Shown: positions 3,569-12,262 of the stretch, one piece after another
Position numbering within the stretch: the stretch's first letter is position 1
Layout: the number at the start of each line of letters is the position of its first letter
Assembly (NCBI GenBank): GCA_031285465.1
Contig: JAITWD010000087.1
Span: 1 to 25,903, forward strand
Direction: 5' to 3'
From: Lachnospiraceae bacterium
Lineage (GTDB): Bacteria > Bacillota > Clostridia > Lachnospirales > Lachnospiraceae
Length of the DNA: 25,903 nt
Notes under the pieces: model-generated
The model's input: only the letters and a program-made list of their open reading frames with translations
What the model was told of the DNA's origin: nothing
The model's database searches: none
Position numbers and translations under genes: made by a program

Positions 3569-6500
3569 ATGTCTGACCCTATTCCTAACAATTCTACCAA
3601 CAATACCACTGATCCTGTTGATCATATTGCCGATACGGAAACCTCGCTTGCCATCCTTAAAAGTATCCTCAATGGACTGAATGCCTTTATTTGCGTTACC
3701 GTGCCGGAGACCGGCGAGATTCTTTTTCTCAATGATAATATCCGGAAGGCCTTTAATATCTCTGATGACGGCATTGGACAATACTGCTATACGCTCATCC
3801 AGGGACTTGACCGCAAATGTGACTTTTGTCCTTATAATCAGCTACAGCTTGATCCCGATCAGGTCATCGTATGGGATCATTGCGAATCGGATGGACGTAC
3901 TCACCAGAAAACCGCTCTGCTCATCGACTGGCCGGGCGGACACAAAGCCCACTTGGAATATGGTATTGATATTACCGCCATTAAGCAGGTTGCCGAAGCA
4001 CTGGAAGACCGTGAACAAATGCTATCGGCATTGAATCAAGCCGCTCTGCTGCTTTTGTCCTTCCGTGAAGGACAGTTTGTTGAGGCGATGAGCGATGGAC
4101 TCTCCATTATTGCCGACATTGCACATTTTGACCGGATGTCGGTTTTTCAAAACTATGAACAGGATAACCGGCTCTATGCTACCCAGACCTATCGCTGGGA
4201 CCATCGGTCGGGCGGTTCTGCTCCCCCCCATCACTATCTTACCGACCTATCTTATGCCGATGTCGCCCCAAGCTGGCAGACCATCCTGGCAGGCGGTGAT
4301 TATATTAATGGCATTGTCAGCCAGATGCCCGACGGTGACTCGCTTAAACAATTTAATTGTCAATCGGTTCTTGCCTTTCCAATCTTTACCGGCGATCGGT
4401 TCTGGGGATTGGCACTCTTTGAGAACCGTAAGGAGGAGCGGCTATTTTCCGATTATGAAACCGATATCCTCCGTTCCGCCGGCATGATGATCACCAATAT
4501 GGTCGGTCGCCACGAGGAGGCGGAGCGCATTCGTGCCGCCGATGAGCGGACCAGGCTTATGCTTGATGCCACCCCACTTAGCTGTTATCTCTTTAACCGC
4601 CAGCACCAATTGATCGACTGCAATGAAGCGGCTGTAAAGCTCTTTCACTTTCGCAATAAGCAGGAGCAGATCGAAGGCTTCAGCCGTTGTCATCCAACCT
4701 ATCAGCCCGATGGAAGTGCCTCCTTAGAGCAATGCAACGATAATATAAAGCGGGCCTTTAACGAGGGCCGTCATGTCTTTGAATGGATGCATCAGACCAC
4801 CGATCGGATCCCCCTGCCTGCCGAGGTCACCCTTGTGCGGGTTAAATATGATAATGAGTATGTTGTGGCCGGTTATGTCAGAGATCTTAGGGAACACCGC
4901 CGGATGATCGACGAGATTGAAACCCGTAATAAGCTTTTGTTCGCCGTCAACCAAATGTCTACCACCCTGTTAAGAGCCGATGCCACCGAATTTGAGTCGG
5001 CTTTACTGCACGCGATGGGGATTATGGCGGAAGCCGCCGGTGCCGATCGTGTCTATATACGGCAGATCATTTACCAGGATGAGCGGATTTATTGTACACA
5101 GTTATATGAATGGGCTGATGCCATGGAATCACCGCACGATTACCCCGACCCCAAGATCATCCTGTCCGAAACTGCCCCTGGGTGGGAAGAACGCCTGGCA
5201 AAAGGATCGTGTATCAATGAAATTATCAGTCAGATCGAAGGTGATCCACAGCAAATGCTGGCTTCCCAGGATATTCAAGCTATCTTACTGGTTCCCATTT
5301 TTGTAAAGGATGAACTATGGGGATTCCTTGGCTTTGACAACTGCCATGAGGAACGACTTTTTACCCACAATGAAGAAAGTATCCTCCGCTCGGCCAGTGA
5401 GCTGATCGCCGATGCACTGTTACGTAATGATATGGAAGCCAATCTTTTGTCCACCACCGTAAAGTTACAGCAAGCGCTGACCGAAGCGCAGAATGCCAAT
5501 CAGGCCAAAAGTGAATTCCTATCCCGCATGAGTCACGAGATGCGCACCCCGATGAACGCCATAATCGGCATGACCACCGTCGGACACAATACCACCGAAC
5601 TGGGGCGTAAAGATTATGCGCTCGGTAAAATTGATGAAGCCTCCAAGCATCTGTTGGGCATCATCAACGATATCCTTGACCTGTCAAAGATCGAGGCCAA
5701 CAAATTTGAATTGTCCGATCTCCCTTTTCCCTTTCGGGAGATGCTTAATAAAGCGGTTTCCTTCGTCCGTTTTCGTATCGAAGAAAAAAAGCTGTTCTTT
5801 TCGCTGACCGTCGATTCTGATGTTCCGTCCTGTGTGTTGGGCGATGAACAGCATCTTACTCAGGTGATCATCAATCTGCTAGCCAATGCTGTCAAATTCA
5901 CTCCGGAAGGCGGGCACATTCATCTTGGCACCACCCTGATCAGGGATACCGACGATGCCTACGAACTGCAGATTGAAGTCTCCGATAGCGGTATCGGTAT
6001 TCCGATAGAGCAGCAAGATAAAATCTTCCAAGCTTTTGAACAGGCCGAGGGTGGTATTACCCGCCGTTATGGCGGTACCGGTTTAGGTCTGGCGATCTCT
6101 CGGCGTATCGTCGAGAAGATGGGCGGTACGATCGCGGTTAAGTCCAAGGAAGGACACGGTTCCCGATTCTTTTTTACCGTTAAGCTTAAGCGAGCTGACA
6201 GCCAGTGTGAACGCACTGATAGTACCGAAAGGAACACTGAAATAATCAGCACCGAGCTTCAAACTGGTGAATTCTCCGGCAAACGGATTTTAATAGCCGA
6301 AGATCTGCCGATCAATCGTGAGATCCTTCAAGCTCTGCTGGAACATACCGGCTTAATTATGGATATGGCGGAAAATGGCAGGGAAGCGGTCGAGATGGTG
6401 GCCGACGCTCCGGGGGCTTACGATCTTATCTTCATGGATGTACAAATGCCGGAAATGGATGGCCTGGAAGCCACCCAATACATTCGGGCGACTCTGACTA

Positions 6501-6649
6501 GTGAAAACCATCTTCCGATCGTCGCCATGACCGCCAATGTTTATCGGGAGGACATCGAGCGTTGTCTCGCAGCGGGAATGGATGACCATCTCGGCAAGCC
6601 CATTGATATCAACCTGATGATGGAAAAGTTGCGCCACTACCTATCATAA
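3569..6649 (+). CDS. Soluble hybrid sensor histidine kinase (PAS-like, GAF, PAS, GAF, HisKA, HATPase, receiver), 1026 aa
   Basis: H-box FLSRMSHEMRTPMNAI, N-box NLLANAVKF, DSGIGI, GGTGLGL; receiver ILIAED...DLIFMDVQMPEMDG...KP. No transmembrane segment seen. Confidence 0.95.
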   Translation: MSDPIPNNSTNNTTDPVDHIADTETSLAILKSILNGLNAFICVTVPETGEILFLNDNIRKAFNISDDGIGQYCYTLIQGLDRKCDFCPYNQLQLDPDQVIVWDHCESDGRTHQKTALLIDWPGGHKAHLEYGIDITAIKQVAEALEDREQMLSALNQAALLLLSFREGQFVEAMSDGLSIIADIAHFDRMSVFQNYEQDNRLYATQTYRWDHRSGGSAPPHHYLTDLSYADVAPSWQTILAGGDYINGIVSQMPDGDSLKQFNCQSVLAFPIFTGDRFWGLALFENRKEERLFSDYETDILRSAGMMITNMVGRHEEAERIRAADERTRLMLDATPLSCYLFNRQHQLIDCNEAAVKLFHFRNKQEQIEGFSRCHPTYQPDGSASLEQCNDNIKRAFNEGRHVFEWMHQTTDRIPLPAEVTLVRVKYDNEYVVAGYVRDLREHRRMIDEIETRNKLLFAVNQMSTTLLRADATEFESALLHAMGIMAEAAGADRVYIRQIIYQDERIYCTQLYEWADAMESPHDYPDPKIILSETAPGWEERLAKGSCINEIISQIEGDPQQMLASQDIQAILLVPIFVKDELWGFLGFDNCHEERLFTHNEESILRSASELIADALLRNDMEANLLSTTVKLQQALTEAQNANQAKSEFLSRMSHEMRTPMNAIIGMTTVGHNTTELGRKDYALGKIDEASKHLLGIINDILDLSKIEANKFELSDLPFPFREMLNKAVSFVRFRIEEKKLFFSLTVDSDVPSCVLGDEQHLTQVIINLLANAVKFTPEGGHIHLGTTLIRDTDDAYELQIEVSDSGIGIPIEQQDKIFQAFEQAEGGITRRYGGTGLGLAISRRIVEKMGGTIAVKSKEGHGSRFFFTVKLKRADSQCERTDSTERNTEIISTELQTGEFSGKRILIAEDLPINREILQALLEHTGLIMDMAENGREAVEMVADAPGAYDLIFMDVQMPEMDGLEATQYIRATLTSENHLPIVAMTANVYREDIERCLAAGMDDHLGKPIDINLMMEKLRHYLS

Positions 6650-6764: not shown

Positions 6765-6941
6765 ATGCAGGTAAATGGAATTATCGACCGTTTCAGCGTC
6801 CAATCCATCCTAATGCTTTCCCACCTCCAAATCCCGGAAACGGAAGGCAGACAGGATAAGCGCCGGAAAGAACCGGAAAGTGCCGGTTTCAATTCAATTC
6901 TGGCCAAACAAATGATAACGGCTAAAACAGCCGCATATTAA
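6765..6941 (+). CDS. Small hypothetical protein, 58 aa (not in the ORF track)
   Basis: AAGGAGG RBS 7 nt before the ATG. MQVNGIIDRFSVQSILMLSHLQIPETEGRQDKRRKEPESAGFNSILAKQMITAKTAAY*. Confidence 0.6.
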   Translation: MQVNGIIDRFSVQSILMLSHLQIPETEGRQDKRRKEPESAGFNSILAKQMITAKTAAY

Positions 6942-7132: not shown

Positions 7133-8587
7133 TTATGCTTTATAGGCCTCGATCAAGCGCAAATAAAACTCAATGGTCTTGTAAAAGCTTTCTAACGGGA
7201 TCCGTTCGTTGTGTCCATGGATCATCGCTCGTTCTTCTTTACTGAGCTGCATTGCCGAAAAACGGTAAACCCGGTCGGTTATCCGACAGTAATGACGCGA
7301 GTCGCTGGCACCCATCATCAGATAGGGGGCGATAAGGATATCTGGCCAGGTAGTATGGATAACCTGCTTCAGGGTTGCCCACTCTGCACCTGATGTATCG
7401 GAGCAGATGGATGCCTCCATACCGCTTACCAGACGAAGATTAATCTTATCATTTTTCATTACCTTACGAAGATGATCTAACGCTGAGGATATCGTGCTAC
7501 TCCCGAGCAGGCGTAGATTTAAACCGATCGTTGCATATGGTGGCAAAATATTGTAAGCTTTACTGCCCTCCATCCGGGTGACGGCACAGGTAGTGCGCAT
7601 CATCGCGTTTAGTTCACCGCCGGCTTTGCGACAGACCAGTTTAAGCAAGGGCAGGAAGCACCACAGATTAGCAAAAATGAGCTTAACTGCCAGACCGGAA
7701 TGACGACCAAGTGTATCAAACATTGCGGCCACCGCCGGCGTAAACTCCGCGGGAAAAGGATGGCTTTCCAGACGAACGACGGCGGAAGAAAGCTGTCCAA
7801 TAATGGTATGGGTTGGCGGAGTGGAGGCATGACCGCCTTCACCTTCCATACTACATTCGATGTTTACCGTTCCTTTTTCGCTGATGCCTACCATAGCACA
7901 GGCCGATCCTATTCCTGGGAAAACCCCTTCAACAATCGCCCCGCCTTCGTCCACCACCATGCCCGGTTTAATGCCCTTTTCCTCAAACCATCTGACAATT
8001 GCAATACAGCTTTCTCCGTCAAGCTCTTCATCACCGCCGAAAGAAAGGTATATATCCTGCTCAGGCACAAAAGAATCGCCGATCAGCTGCTCCACCGCTT
8101 CGAGGATTCCGCACAAGGTCCCCTTGGTATCCAAGGTACCCCGCCCCCACAGCACACCGTCTTCGATCAAACCGCCGAAAGCCGGCCGTTCCCAACGTTC
8201 CTCATCGGCAGGTACCACATCATAATGGGCCATCATGACAAGCGGTGACCGACTTTGCTTTCCCTTCCAATGATAGAGCAGTCCTGCCGGTCCGATCTGC
8301 TCGCGGGTACAGGTCTGGTGGATCAACGGAAAGCGCTCGGCCAAAAGGTGGACAAACTTAGCAAATTCAGCCCGATCCACCAATGCTTCGTCACGATAGG
8401 AAACCGTTTTACACCGGATCATCGCCGCCAGATCATCGGCTGCCTTGGCACGGGGGATGGTGTAGGTACCTGGCAATTTTGCCGGCAACAACTCCGGTTG
8501 GAAGCGGAATGCCCTAATAAATATAGTAATTATGAAAATGAAAAGAACGGCGATTATTAATATAGTAACGATTGATCCTATGCTCAT
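7133..8587 (-). CDS. M20 family metallopeptidase/amidohydrolase (Gly-X carboxypeptidase / PM20D1-like) with N-terminal membrane anchor
   Basis: MMAHYDVVP, WGRGTLDTKG, GGDEE, VVDEGG and HGHNER metal/catalytic motifs. Hydrophobic N-terminus. Start moved to ATG 8587 because GGAGG directly abuts ATG 8593. Confidence 0.92.
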   Translation of the reverse strand: MSIGSIVTILIIAVLFIFIITIFIRAFRFQPELLPAKLPGTYTIPRAKAADDLAAMIRCKTVSYRDEALVDRAEFAKFVHLLAERFPLIHQTCTREQIGPAGLLYHWKGKQSRSPLVMMAHYDVVPADEERWERPAFGGLIEDGVLWGRGTLDTKGTLCGILEAVEQLIGDSFVPEQDIYLSFGGDEELDGESCIAIVRWFEEKGIKPGMVVDEGGAIVEGVFPGIGSACAMVGISEKGTVNIECSMEGEGGHASTPPTHTIIGQLSSAVVRLESHPFPAEFTPAVAAMFDTLGRHSGLAVKLIFANLWCFLPLLKLVCRKAGGELNAMMRTTCAVTRMEGSKAYNILPPYATIGLNLRLLGSSTISSALDHLRKVMKNDKINLRLVSGMEASICSDTSGAEWATLKQVIHTTWPDILIAPYLMMGASDSRHYCRITDRVYRFSAMQLSKEERAMIHGHNERIPLESFYKTIEFYLRLIEAYKA

Positions 8588-8615
8588 GTGCATCCTCCGA
8601 TTAAAATCTATCTCT

Positions 8616-9311
8616 TTATAATTTATTCCTTTTATAGAGGATTCGGGCGGCTCCGATAGAGATTAGGGCACCGACCGGAACAAGTATGCCAACCGACGAC
8701 GCCAATGATGGGACCAAAAGGAAAAGCACCAACATAAACAATAATGGCACAAGCGCAATCTTCCAGTTCTTACCGACATAGACCACCGCCAGTCCGCCAA
8801 AAAGCGACGGCAGGATATTTTCAAAAGCAGGTTGCAGTACCGGAGAATTAAGAACCGGCGTTAATTGCGCGAGTAAAAGCACTCCGGCTCCGATAACCAC
8901 CGTGGTGACCAAAGAGCTGGTCGCCACGGCTATCGTGGAAACCACCTCTCCTTCAGGAGTCCCCGGCTTGACCTTAACCGCTTCCATCGCATTAAGTGCT
9001 GCCGGCACCTTTAGATTGGTCAGATTGCCCGTTACAAAACCAAGATAAGATCCGCCGGTGCCTAACATCGGCGTAAAGGTGATGACCTCAATGGTGCCGA
9101 CGGTCCAGAAGATGGGGGCGACGCCGAGCAATCCCTTAAAGACCGGCTGAAATCCCGGCCATGCGTCATAATAGACGCAAATAGCAATCGGAACAAAGAG
9201 CAGCAGAACCGCAGCGGTCCATATCCATATTTTCCCGTACAAATGACTTTGAGCCGCATAAAGATTGTTATCTGCAGTTTTATTGGATTTGTTATTATCT
9301 ATCTTGTTCAT
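8616..9311 (-). CDS. Uncharacterised polytopic membrane protein, 231 aa (DUF5058 partner)
   Basis: About 6 hydrophobic segments. Same orientation as DUF5058 upstream and the M20 gene, which starts 28 nt after its stop. Confidence 0.85.
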   Translation of the reverse strand: MNKIDNNKSNKTADNNLYAAQSHLYGKIWIWTAAVLLLFVPIAICVYYDAWPGFQPVFKGLLGVAPIFWTVGTIEVITFTPMLGTGGSYLGFVTGNLTNLKVPAALNAMEAVKVKPGTPEGEVVSTIAVATSSLVTTVVIGAGVLLLAQLTPVLNSPVLQPAFENILPSLFGGLAVVYVGKNWKIALVPLLFMLVLFLLVPSLASSVGILVPVGALISIGAARILYKRNKL

Positions 9312-9348
9312 ATCTTATTCCTACTTTCTTATTTTCTATCGCTCTAAT

Positions 9349-9419
9349 CCCATGCATTTCGCAGATTTTATCTGCGAAACTGCTTAAATAAGAATTTGAA
9401 AAAACTATGATTTTTCAAA
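9349..9419. repeat. Intergenic double-hairpin repeat, family A copy 2
   Basis: 65/71 identical to 1840-1910. Perfect TTTCGCAGA/TCTGCGAAA and TTTGAAAAA/TTTTTCAAA stems. Confidence 0.9.
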
Positions 9420-9444
9420 ATGTAGCTTTTTTATATCTTTTATT

Positions 9445-10170
9445 TTAGCCGACAATTATGGGAGTGATCACGGTAGCGAATGCCATCGCACCAAGCATAC
9501 TTATCGGTAAAGCATAATTTTCCAACCACTTAAGACCACATTTTTTGATGAGCAAACCACAAACCGCCATGAGTATCGCAGAAAAAAGCAAAACAAAAAT
9601 GGGGATAAAGCCCGGCAATCCACTGCGTATATCCGCAAAAACCATCCCCAGAAAGGCCGATATCATTCCAAGGAACATGGCCGTAATAAACAGGTCGCCC
9701 CACTTAGCATCTTTATTCTTAATACTGACCAGCCCCTTCTGAATCCGCCTAAGCAACAGCGGCACAAGAATAATACTCGGCATGATGCCCAGGGTCATCA
9801 CCCATGCAATGGCCGAATAAACCTTGGGATCAGCGATAGTTTCGGCAAGGGGTATTCCCAGTGCCGTTGCCGTTGAGGTAGCCGCCGGCAATTCATAGGT
9901 GATGGCACCAACAACACTGAGCCGGATCCACGGCAAAGGCAGACCAAGGAACTTGGAGAGGGTAATCACACCCAGCAAAATGGAAACGGCCGGCGCAATG
10001 GTAAAAAGGGCGGTGGATGCAATAATTTTATTGATCTGTCTGGTATCCATATTAAGCATCTTCGCCTGACGATAGGCCCGAATGAGAAAAAAAAGCGATT
10101 GTGCGATAACGAAAAGGATGACAATAGCCGCCAAGGCATAAAGAAAGGGGGCATTAGTGGTAAAACTCAT
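9445..10170 (-). CDS. DUF5058 family membrane protein, 241 aa
   Basis: AQSLFFLIRA and LGLPLPWIRLSVVGAITYELPAA segments match my recollection of DUF5058. GGAGG RBS. Confidence 0.8.
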   Translation of the reverse strand: MSFTTNAPFLYALAAIVILFVIAQSLFFLIRAYRQAKMLNMDTRQINKIIASTALFTIAPAVSILLGVITLSKFLGLPLPWIRLSVVGAITYELPAATSTATALGIPLAETIADPKVYSAIAWVMTLGIMPSIILVPLLLRRIQKGLVSIKNKDAKWGDLFITAMFLGMISAFLGMVFADIRSGLPGFIPIFVLLFSAILMAVCGLLIKKCGLKWLENYALPISMLGAMAFATVITPIIVG

Positions 10171-10246
10171 GGTGATTATCCTCCGTAGAAAATTATAGTT
10201 TGTTCTCTTGTAACTATGAAGGTACTAAATAGTTTCCGTTTTACAT

Positions 10247-10275: not shown

Positions 10276-10296
10276 CCGACCACTTACAGGACAAAA

Positions 10297-10329
10297 TCGA
10301 GTAGGAAGAGATAACCCCCTCCTACTCGA
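10297..10329. repeat. Hairpin repeat, family C copy 1
   Basis: TCGAGTAGGA/TCCTACTCGA 10-bp stem; 27/32 identical to 15531-15562. Confidence 0.8.
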
Positions 10330-10370
10330 CGTGATAAATGTATTTGCCTCTGCTTAGTCAGAATTTTAAT

Positions 10371-10417: not shown

Positions 10418-12262
10418 TTATGCAAGCGGTGCTATCCGTGTGGATCCATTGGTCTGATTATATACATCAACGATCCGTTGCCAGGTCTGCGGTCCGATAA
10501 TACCATCCTGACTCAAACCAAACTGCCGCTGAAAAGCACGAACCGCTGTCTGGGTCGCCGGCCCAAAGGCTCCGTCAACCGTAAGCTTCGGAATCGCCGG
10601 ATAACTATAACCGATCATATTCAAAAATTCCTGCATGGTGGCAACACCGCTGCCAACCGATCCGACCCGTAACAAAGTTCCGGGATATTGCGGGTTTGCC
10701 TGCGGCGGATTGGTCGGCGGGACCGCTTCATTTAAACTGTTATAAACCTCATATAATTTTGCCCAGGTCGCCGGACCCACAATACCATCGGCGGTCAAAC
10801 CAAACCGTTGCTGAAACTGCTTAACCGCAGCCGTCGTTTTAGGGCCGAAAATCGTATCCTGAACCACCGTCCCGACTTCGGGATAAAAAGCCGCAATATA
10901 ATCCAACAGGTATTGGAGGGTAACCACGTCATGACCTCTGGCACCTTCTCTGATCACACTACCAGGCATTGAGTTGCCAACCTCCAGGCGTTCACCTTCA
11001 CTTTCCAATTCCGCCAATTTAGTGACCGCCACATAGATATATGATATTTTATACCAGGTCGCACGATCCACCACCCCGGTCTGGGGCAGATTGAAAACCC
11101 CCTGAAAGGTACGGACTGCCGCCGCGGTATCAGCGCCATAAGTGCCGTTTCGATTGACAATGGGCGGAATAAGCGGATAATTGGCACGGATTCGGTTGAG
11201 CTGATCCTGAATGACCCTAACTGCATTCCCCTGCGAACCGGTCTGCAAATTATAGCCCGGATAGGACTGCAATGTACCGCCAATGGAAGTGGCTTCTTTG
11301 ATAACCAGATCACGTGGATAGTAGTTCCGTAATATCTCCATTGGTGTATAGCCATTATTGGCCAAGGTCACCGTTCCCCACTGGTGAAGACCGGGGCAGG
11401 TCACGGTCGATCCATTGCAAAATTCGGTAAAATAAGGGTCACGAAAACCCGATCGGGTCAAATACTGCATAAAGACCTGATCCACCACATCACTCACACT
11501 CTTAAAAATAGTCTGCCCCGGCTTATAATACTGATCGGAGGAGGTTGAATTTGTTATATCAAAGTTATAACCTTGACTGCGATACCATTCGGTATAGATA
11601 CGATTCAGGGCAAAATTAATGATCGCACGGATATTAGCTTCCAGTGAGGCGGTCGGCCAGGTGGGATAAATCTCACTGCTGGCGACATTCTTTATGTAAT
11701 CAACAAAGGGAACGGTTACATTAGTGGCTGCAGAATTCTTGGTACCAAGATGAACGGTAATATGAGCCGGTATCACCACATTAGGTAATACACGAGGCGG
11801 ACGCCCGCCAGTTGCTCCCGGTTGGGATGCGCGTGTCTGACCATCTGCCGGTCCTTCCTGATCCCATGATGTATCAAGCAGCAGCGAATTATCCGGAATA
11901 TCAATATATTCTATTTCATCCGCCGAACTGGCTCTTGATGAAGATAATCGCGGATGCATCTGAACCGATTGGATCGATGTCTCGGTATCAAAAATCTCCA
12001 CACCGTGTAACATTACCGGCTGATATCCCTCCCTCTGAACAATGACATCGTACTTGGCATATGGAATATTTGCATAATCCTCCTGCAATGAGCCCGCTTT
12101 ATCCGGTGCCCAGAGTGCCACCGTATCGGTCTCACCATCTTCATTGGTGCCCAGACGATATAACTCATTTCCCTCATAGTCATTGATCACCACCGTTGCA
12201 TCACCAAGCGGTACGGTGTTCTCCCCAGCATATATCTCCAACTTCAATAGTCCTGTTCCCAT
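10418..12262 (-). CDS. sleC: SleC-type spore cortex-lytic enzyme with three C-terminal peptidoglycan-binding domains, 614 aa
   Basis: N-terminal pro-region; catalytic segment ITVHLG...YIKNVASSEIYPTW...LNRIYTEWYRSQGYNFDITNST..DQ; three repeats of the type G..V..Q..LN...G.yG..T.AAVR.FQ..F.L..DG.VG..TW. Confidence 0.85.
   Translation of the reverse strand: MGTGLLKLEIYAGENTVPLGDATVVINDYEGNELYRLGTNEDGETDTVALWAPDKAGSLQEDYANIPYAKYDVIVQREGYQPVMLHGVEIFDTETSIQSVQMHPRLSSSRASSADEIEYIDIPDNSLLLDTSWDQEGPADGQTRASQPGATGGRPPRVLPNVVIPAHITVHLGTKNSAATNVTVPFVDYIKNVASSEIYPTWPTASLEANIRAIINFALNRIYTEWYRSQGYNFDITNSTSSDQYYKPGQTIFKSVSDVVDQVFMQYLTRSGFRDPYFTEFCNGSTVTCPGLHQWGTVTLANNGYTPMEILRNYYPRDLVIKEATSIGGTLQSYPGYNLQTGSQGNAVRVIQDQLNRIRANYPLIPPIVNRNGTYGADTAAAVRTFQGVFNLPQTGVVDRATWYKISYIYVAVTKLAELESEGERLEVGNSMPGSVIREGARGHDVVTLQYLLDYIAAFYPEVGTVVQDTIFGPKTTAAVKQFQQRFGLTADGIVGPATWAKLYEVYNSLNEAVPPTNPPQANPQYPGTLLRVGSVGSGVATMQEFLNMIGYSYPAIPKLTVDGAFGPATQTAVRAFQRQFGLSQDGIIGPQTWQRIVDVYNQTNGSTRIAPLA

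Follow-up and report, generated by a model that had tools for sequence, protein, structure and literature searches.

Within a contig of 25,903 nucleotides from a Lachnospiraceae bacterium (JAITWD010000087.1 of assembly GCA_031285465.1; "the window" refers to this whole stretch), three genes encode a membrane protein of the family DUF5058 (subunit A), a second, unnamed membrane protein (subunit B) and a metallohydrolase of the M20 type (gene C). An earlier sequence-only reading of the window had proposed that the two membrane proteins are the paralogous halves of an undescribed heterodimeric transporter which is coupled to the hydrolase. The computational analysis presented here supports A and B as an obligate pair, on the grounds of their strict co-occurrence, their fixed gene order and a strong complex prediction. 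The pairing, the opposite predicted membrane topology of the two proteins, their shared predicted fold and their linkage to hydrolase genes all follow from the computations themselves. Building on these results, we consider it fairly likely that A and B form an inverted heterodimeric secondary transporter, which imports an N-acyl amino acid or a short peptide for cleavage in the cytoplasm.

The association of the two genes was determined by a profile search across 401 genomes sampled over the phylum, among which related genomes are not independent of each other. DUF5058 passes the cut-off in 29 of them, the genome of the window included, and B is likewise present in all of the 28 others. Frequent occurrence of one gene without the other, which the sequence-only reading had named as an observation that would speak against an obligate heterodimer, was not seen: there is one firm B-only genome, in which the match lies five bases from the end of the locus DNA, and the remaining one-sided matches are four in number and all weak (E ~1e-4). 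At each of the 25 fetched loci, B lies directly downstream of A on the same strand. The identity of these pairs to the proteins of the window ranges from 87% down to ~21-25%, and this wide range among linked pairs indicates that the linkage is old. One genome (G394) carries two separate A-B pairs, located on its contigs C48 and C40 (loci L061 and L085), which shows that a genome can harbour more than one copy of the module, presumably with different substrates.

The two proteins are also predicted to interact physically. Using alignments for both chains, the complex prediction of A with B gave an ipSAE (interaction prediction score from aligned errors) of 0.77, compared to 0.00 for the best of three controls; in a calibration, 58 of 80 solved complexes attained the mark applied to this score, as did 2 of 110 mismatched pairs. 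Three runs share at least 93% of their contacts, and the pLDDT (predicted local distance difference test) of the partner is at least 76. With ~540 predicted cross-chain contacts, the chains would be interwoven and not arranged side by side, and recall of a known complex is unlikely because neither sequence nor fold searches uncovered a solved relative. Among the predicted contacts, transmembrane helix 2 of A and transmembrane helix 3 of B (A-TM2 and B-TM3) run parallel, both from inside to outside, and A-TM1 is antiparallel to B-TM3. The contacts A-TM4/B-TM6 and A-TM6/B-TM4, both antiparallel, constitute a symmetric pair, which is what a twofold axis in the plane of the membrane predicts. The helix directions in the complex furthermore agree with topologies that were derived independently from the distribution of lysine and arginine residues (see below). 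Judged by this prediction, A and B form a physical heterodimer.

Subunit A matches the Pfam model of DUF5058, PF16481, over its full length (238.8 bits, with a cut-off of 28.2). B does not match PF16481, and its family appears in neither Pfam nor NCBIfam as far as window B, searched against both, and 25 members of the B family, searched against Pfam, can tell. Both proteins are predicted to possess six transmembrane helices and a central hairpin region, at residues ~73-118 in A and ~81-122 in B. Given six spanning helices per subunit, this less hydrophobic, glycine-rich centre must enter and exit the membrane on one side, which is predicted to be the outside for A and the inside for B. The topology was read from family-averaged counts of lysine plus arginine (Lys+Arg) per loop, which alternate strongly in both proteins and in opposite registers. 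In A, ~14 such residues fall into loops 27-52, 141-160 and 205-220 and ~3.7 into all other non-membrane parts, and this bias predicts that both termini are located outside (N-out/C-out). In B, ~11.3 are found over residues 1-30, 101-120, 178-188 and 221-231 and ~2.0 elsewhere, which predicts an N-in/C-in arrangement. The two subunits are accordingly predicted to lie in the membrane in opposite orientations.

Two of the DUF5058 matches are irregular as genes. In genome G016 (L005/L063, C1:837013-837657), the match holds one in-frame TGA and the surrounding calls of open reading frames (ORFs) are irregular, possibly due to a pseudogene, a sequencing error or a recoded stop. In genome G321 (L030/L084, C98:14903-15707), the match falls into two pieces (profile positions 1-142 and 181-222), and the B and M20 genes downstream of it look intact; subunit A may be disrupted in this genome.

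The question of whether A and B are homologous starts from the segments which the sequence-only reading had aligned by eye, A 68-97 (V68...G76...W81...G88...E93..P95-A97) and B 76-105 (V76...G84...Y89...G95...K101..P103-A105). The residues, motifs, coordinates and protein lengths (241 and 231 aa) given there are exact. The AP motif said to precede both segments is conserved in DUF5058 but not in the partner. Conservation was read from two 25-member alignments, comprising diverse DUF5058 proteins and their cognate partners. P60, G76, R83, E93 and M125 are invariant in A, with W81 and G88 near-invariant; in B, G26, G84, Y89, G95, P103 and S132 are invariant and position 101 is K or R throughout. 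In the register of the by-eye alignment, G76 pairs with G84, W81 with Y89, G88 with G95 and E93 with K or R101, and hence the aligned positions are those which each family conserves.

Sequence comparison bears out this register but leaves the relationship weakly placed. BLASTP of A against B recovers the same segment with 12/50 identities at an E-value of 2.2, so that the alignment is not significant as a single pair. The comparison of family profiles by hhalign, which the sequence-only reading had suggested as a check, depends on the depth of the profiles: with the 25-sequence profiles the probability is 2% (P 0.025), in the same E93/K101 register, a reversed control outscores the real comparison and 6 of 60 block shuffles equal or surpass it, placing the shallow profiles at chance. 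A deeper B profile, to which 127 representatives at 50% identity from a whole-library search had been added, gives as its best alignment B 100-155 against A 92-144, with K101 opposite E93 and P103 opposite P95 (P 4.2e-4, probability 34%). None of 100 shuffles in 20-column blocks reaches this score (maximum 25.8 versus 30.4-32.5 for the real comparison); 3 of 100 do so with 40-column blocks, which can retain the matching segment intact. A profile search with alignment A1 yielded no added DUF5058 diversity.

These values leave room for a complex of non-paralogues, in which A and B would be unrelated helical proteins, as AzlC and AzlD are to each other, and the likeness of their motifs would be convergent or accidental. 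The E-value of the single-pair comparison, the low shallow-profile probability and the reversed control speak for this account, as does the fact that B matches AzlC and A does not. Structural comparison points the other way. When both monomer models were searched with Foldseek against 2.3 million clusters of the AlphaFold DB, the first matches of model B outside its own family were DUF5058 clusters, with template modelling (TM) scores of 0.55-0.63 and probabilities of 0.94-1.0, and the first matches of model A outside DUF5058 were clusters of the B family (for example, TM 0.57/0.61 over 232 columns, probability 1.0). These reciprocal matches stand well above all other folds: two weaker partial matches, to a chromate transporter and to a bicarbonate-transporter-like domain, have probabilities of ~0.6 and TM scores of 0.34-0.35, and the others, partial AzlC matches aside, stay at probabilities of 0.35 or less and TM scores below 0.3. 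Equal helix counts, similar lengths, the hairpin region at the same place, the shared register of the family-invariant glycines and the aromatic residue, its recovery by the deep profile and the symmetric predicted contacts between helices 4 and 6 also argue against unrelated proteins, an account we regard as somewhat unlikely. The structure-level evidence for paralogy is stronger than the sequence evidence, and A and B are probably homologous, even though sequence alone does not establish it; the proposal of paralogous halves can be upheld as a probable one, on evidence other than its by-eye alignment.

A further relationship concerns B in particular. Compared by hhalign with an AzlC profile built from 25 genomes, the C-terminal helices of B match with a probability of 72% (P 3.5e-5), a score reached by none of 60 shuffles, and the deeper B profile matches with a probability of 90% (P 1.7e-6). 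The match comprises the last three to four helices of B, including a motif of the LPALFGAL type. Partial Foldseek matches to AzlC entries cover the same region of B (probability 0.82-0.97), and over the matched part the Lys+Arg pattern gives the same orientation in both proteins. The AzlC Pfam domain PF03591, which spans the N-terminal ~137 positions, was absent in A (at E <=0.1) and in the 25 B members (at E <=1). A showed a probability of 0.4% against an AzlD profile. For B, a likeness to AzlD with a probability of 25% over 42 columns was not counted as evidence. The description that fits B best is thus that of a remotely AzlC-like protein with a full-size partner of the same predicted fold.

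Experiments have shown AzlCD to be a bipartite amino-acid exporter, with histidine and azaleucine as substrates, whose AzlC subunit has no activity by itself; the small subunits employed by its relatives in other bacteria are dissimilar (bioRxiv 10.1101/2022.07.07.499250). By analogy, A-B could act as an exporter which expels an amino acid or another product of the hydrolase that is harmful upon accumulation, and the export activity of the only characterised relatives, together with the AzlC-like C-terminal part of B, lends this possibility its support. It is set against the failure to detect the AzlC Pfam domain in A or B, the replacement of the small AzlD-type subunit by a full-size protein and the layout of the locus, as membrane proteins together with one or more catabolic hydrolases, and sometimes a PucR-type regulator, represent the usual arrangement for uptake and breakdown. 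We judge export to be unlikely. In comparison with the AzlCD/BrnFE/YgaZH systems (LIV-E; AzlC PF03591), A-B would share the principle of a two-gene membrane transporter for amino-acid-like solutes which operates without an ATPase or a binding protein, and B shares the AzlC-like last helices by both profile and predicted structure. In contrast to AzlCD, the second subunit is not a protein of ~100 aa such as AzlD but the 241-aa DUF5058 protein with the same predicted fold as B, and the operon partner is a hydrolase, suggesting uptake rather than export.

Searches of solved structures contributed little. Neither monomer model gave a Foldseek match in the PDB at E <=0.001, and VIA-align against 48,161 PDB representatives reached Z-scores of at best 5.8 (B) and 7.7 (A), over short helical stretches only. 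An alignment of the first repeat of Band 3 with A 27-241 in VIA-align (Z 6.4, root-mean-square deviation 7.0, 182 residues) was too weak to use. Profile searches of PDB sequences with A and B returned nothing meaningful, and a shape search of the ESM Atlas with model A returned its own family only. Since monomer models make poor queries when the dimer is intertwined, these results from the PDB do not demonstrate a new fold.

The third component of the system is the hydrolase. The protein encoded in the window contains both M20 domains (PF01546 at E 2.7e-27 and PF07687 at E 1.3e-6), and its best NCBIfam models are of the PRK08262 type, below their equivalog cut-offs; a phmmer search of PDB sequences with this protein gave no match at E <=1e-10. 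The motifs AHYD, GTLDTKG, GGDEE, VVDEGG and IHGHNE are all present, and their residues H123/D125, D155, E189-E190, D215/E216 and H459/H461 are those which we take to be metal ligands, as in other M20 enzymes. An N-terminal transmembrane anchor is located at residues ~5-27.

Coupling to an M20 hydrolase, as put forward by the sequence-only reading, holds in a broader form. A hydrolase gene adjoins the pair on the same strand at 21 of 23 informative loci, and at 18 of the 23 it encodes an M20 enzyme, but other families occur as well. The anchored PRK08262 type of the window is found at 10 loci and other M20 types at 8 (seven TIGR01891 amidohydrolases, three of them CpsA-like, and one protein resembling glutamate carboxypeptidase), so that at least three M20 subfamilies are represented; an M42 aminopeptidase, a dipeptidase-like Amidohydro_1 protein and a PGA_cap protein adjoin the pair at one locus each. 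Some loci contain two or three hydrolases, the additional one being a second M20 or an Amidohydro_3 enzyme. All of the linked enzyme families cleave small amides with the release of a free amino acid, and the recurrence of differing amide-cleaving families beside the pair argues that the pair handles a substrate or a product of such reactions.

The location of these enzymes bears on the direction of transport. In 11 sequences of the anchored type, 2-4 Lys or Arg residues directly follow the helix and none precedes it (at most one if the choice of start codon is in doubt), and by the positive-inside rule the catalytic domain is therefore predicted to be cytoplasmic. No signal peptide was found in the non-anchored linked hydrolases. 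A cytoplasmic catalytic domain favours import followed by cleavage in the cytoplasm. The same anchor may nevertheless be read in another way, namely that A-B transports no solute but serves as a scaffold or activator of the hydrolase, or flips N-acyl amino acids or lipopeptides embedded in the membrane or presents them to the tethered enzyme. The PRK08262-type M20 enzyme is membrane-anchored at every such locus examined (the 11 sequences above), its nearest named relatives presumably include enzymes which act on lipid-like N-acyl amino acids (PM20D1), and neither monomer matched a solved transporter fold. Since the linked hydrolase is soluble, cytoplasmic and free of an anchor in about half of the loci, a fixed partnership with an anchored enzyme is not general. 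Invariant charged residues within the membrane, like the kinship with AzlC, speak for solute binding, and we regard a role without solute transport as very unlikely.

Two further observations concern the surroundings of the pair at other loci. PucR-type regulators occur at three of them (L064:5108-6739, L075:2876-4498 and L076:6082-7689), and the A-B pairs which they flank form a subgroup with a long amidohydrolase of the TIGR01891 type (~428-468 aa); this arrangement suggests an inducible catabolic unit. On contig C48 of genome G394, a complete gene of the Mur ligase family (N, M and C domains, 466 aa; L061:6678-8078, plus strand) ends 14 nt ahead of the DUF5058 gene. It could be a housekeeping murC in this position by chance, or hint at a cell-wall peptide as substrate.

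In the mechanism which we favour, A and B would assemble into a single membrane complex, which is most likely a heterodimeric secondary transporter with one copy of each subunit. Their opposite orientation would give the inverted pseudo-twofold design of many secondary transporters, here divided between two genes, and the subunits would probably be ancient paralogues, with at least B belonging to a wider AzlC-like group. Conserved polar residues within or next to the hairpins (R83 and E93 of A; E75, Y89, N96, N99 and K/R101 of B) would contribute the site for the substrate and the coupling ion. The complex may import a small amide with a free carboxylate, such as an N-acyl amino acid, a dipeptide or a short peptide, and the hydrolase of the adjacent gene, in the window a membrane-tethered M20 enzyme, would then cleave it on the cytoplasmic side. 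Transport, its direction, the class of substrate and the roles of individual residues are the parts of this mechanism that we infer.

Several points weigh against the proposed importer, in addition to the shallow-profile and shuffling results described above. Evidence for the pseudo-symmetry of the complex comes from 40 listed contacts. The salt bridge between E93 and K101, which the sequence-only reading had put forward as one option, gains no support from the model, in which both residues, like R83, are absent from the listed cross-interface residues; the confident interface includes their neighbours A 92 and 95-96 and B 99-100 and 103-104. This absence fits side chains that face a cavity and counts neither for nor against a contact. 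The monomer models are of moderate quality (pLDDT 75 and 83; predicted TM-score 0.50 and 0.60). A shows no similarity to the AzlC profile (probability 0.8%). Two of the 23 informative loci, L066 and L083, have no adjoining hydrolase. The sole characterised remote relatives, the AzlC systems, are exporters, and a search of a literature library for DUF5058 and PF16481 gave no papers on the family, in line with the earlier description of the system as undescribed. Lastly, the ESM Atlas contains a cluster of 54 members, 78% of them with PF16481, whose 463-aa representative resembles an A-B fusion and matches model B with a TM-score of 0.82 over 216 residues. This representative, which we treat as a lead only, leaves no space for a linking helix, and a direct fusion is hard to reconcile with the predicted topology because A ends outside and B begins inside; either it is a gene-calling artefact or the topology is partly wrong. 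Neither the 400 genomes nor the 150 top-ranking representatives contained an A-B fusion, and none emerged from a profile search admitting proteins of up to 527 aa.

Known systems offer partial parallels to the arrangement proposed here. Homologous membrane proteins of opposite orientation which are encoded by neighbouring genes are known from the small multidrug resistance (SMR) family (EbrAB, YdgEF), from Fluc/CrcB and from short-chain chromate transporters. They share with A-B adjacent genes, similar lengths, an opposite Lys+Arg bias and a predicted antiparallel heterodimer, but differ in that their protomers consist of 3-6 plain helices, whereas A and B each have six and a hairpin region, and in that the sequence similarity between A and B is far lower. 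The proposed division of labour between transporter and hydrolase resembles the abgABT genes of Escherichia coli, where the secondary transporter AbgT is encoded together with the M20 aminoacyl hydrolases AbgA and AbgB, which cleave the imported amide p-aminobenzoyl-glutamate in the cytoplasm. Unlike A-B, AbgT consists of one polypeptide of ~500 aa and belongs to another family, and it gave no sequence or fold match in any of the searches run with A and B. Pfam searches with A and with the 25 B members did not return the membrane-protein families DUF969 and DUF979.

In the window itself, the three genes are co-oriented on the minus strand in the order A, B, C behind one predicted promoter, as the sequence-only reading had stated, and the features of the locus are compiled in Table 1. 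The promoter-like site lies ~22 nt upstream of the DUF5058 start and is followed by a GGAGGA ribosome-binding site ahead of A. The M20 gene begins 22 nt past B. The spacer between A and B measures 133 nt, compared with a median of 12 nt elsewhere among the fetched loci, because a dispersed 71-bp hairpin repeat sits inside it. This repeat is a double hairpin whose second hairpin lacks a U-tract and is for that reason probably no terminator; the repeat could affect the expression of A relative to B. The operon is flanked upstream by an ORF of 614 aa (10418-12262, minus strand) and on its other side by an ORF of 1026 aa (3569-6649, plus strand), which by eye resembles a hybrid sensor histidine kinase with a receiver domain; on the strand of the operon itself there is no adjacent regulator. 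Among the public runs listed, no RNA run contains this stretch, the sole run being DNA from a termite gut metagenome, which is probably the sample of origin.

Table 1. Features of the three-gene unit and its immediate surroundings, in window coordinates.
Feature	Position	Strand	Details
Terminator-like hairpin, ~200 nt 3' of the M20 stop	6918..6934	-	weak pattern match, 7 pairs
Gene C, M20 metallohydrolase, PRK08262 type, 486 aa, N-terminal anchor	7133..8593	-	PF01546 + M20_dimer
Subunit B, unnamed membrane partner, 231 aa	8616..9311	-	no Pfam or NCBIfam match
71-bp dispersed hairpin repeat within the A-B spacer	9349..9419	.	65/71 identical to 1840-1910
Subunit A, DUF5058 protein, 241 aa	9445..10170	-	PF16481 E 6.8e-71
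Promoter-like site, TTCATA-17-TATAAT	10192..10220	-	10/12 consensus matches; putative
Terminator-like 16-pair hairpin, 3' of the upstream gene, between that gene and the three-gene unit	10296..10330	-	

The two membrane families are large. Of the candidates scored, DUF5058 and its partner each account for over 6000 clusters at 90% identity; at 50% identity, 927 clusters of the partner family reach E <=1e-10. The named members belong mostly to the Lachnospiraceae and other Clostridia. New in the present analysis are the opposite topology of A and B, their reciprocal structural similarity, the kinship of B with AzlC, the linked hydrolases beyond M20 and the cytoplasmic placement of the enzyme. 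More tentatively, and with somewhat less than an even chance in our estimation, A and B could represent a surviving unfused stage of an inverted-repeat transporter, which would have arisen when a six-helix protomer with a single hairpin duplicated to give two paralogues of opposite orientation. They would then form a large unrecognised family whose heterodimer fold has no solved counterpart; it would also explain the architecture of exporters of the AzlC type and supply gut and other anaerobes with N-acyl amino acids or short peptides for cleavage.

If the importer proposed here is real, a widespread pathway through which anaerobes import and break down acylated amino acids or small peptides has been left unannotated, and the partner protein B would deserve a family of its own. 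The pair would be a rare large case of an inverted-repeat transporter still split in two genes, so that questions of the evolution and assembly of such transporters would become testable, and the AzlC exporters, which are poorly understood, would gain an initial hypothesis on their structure.

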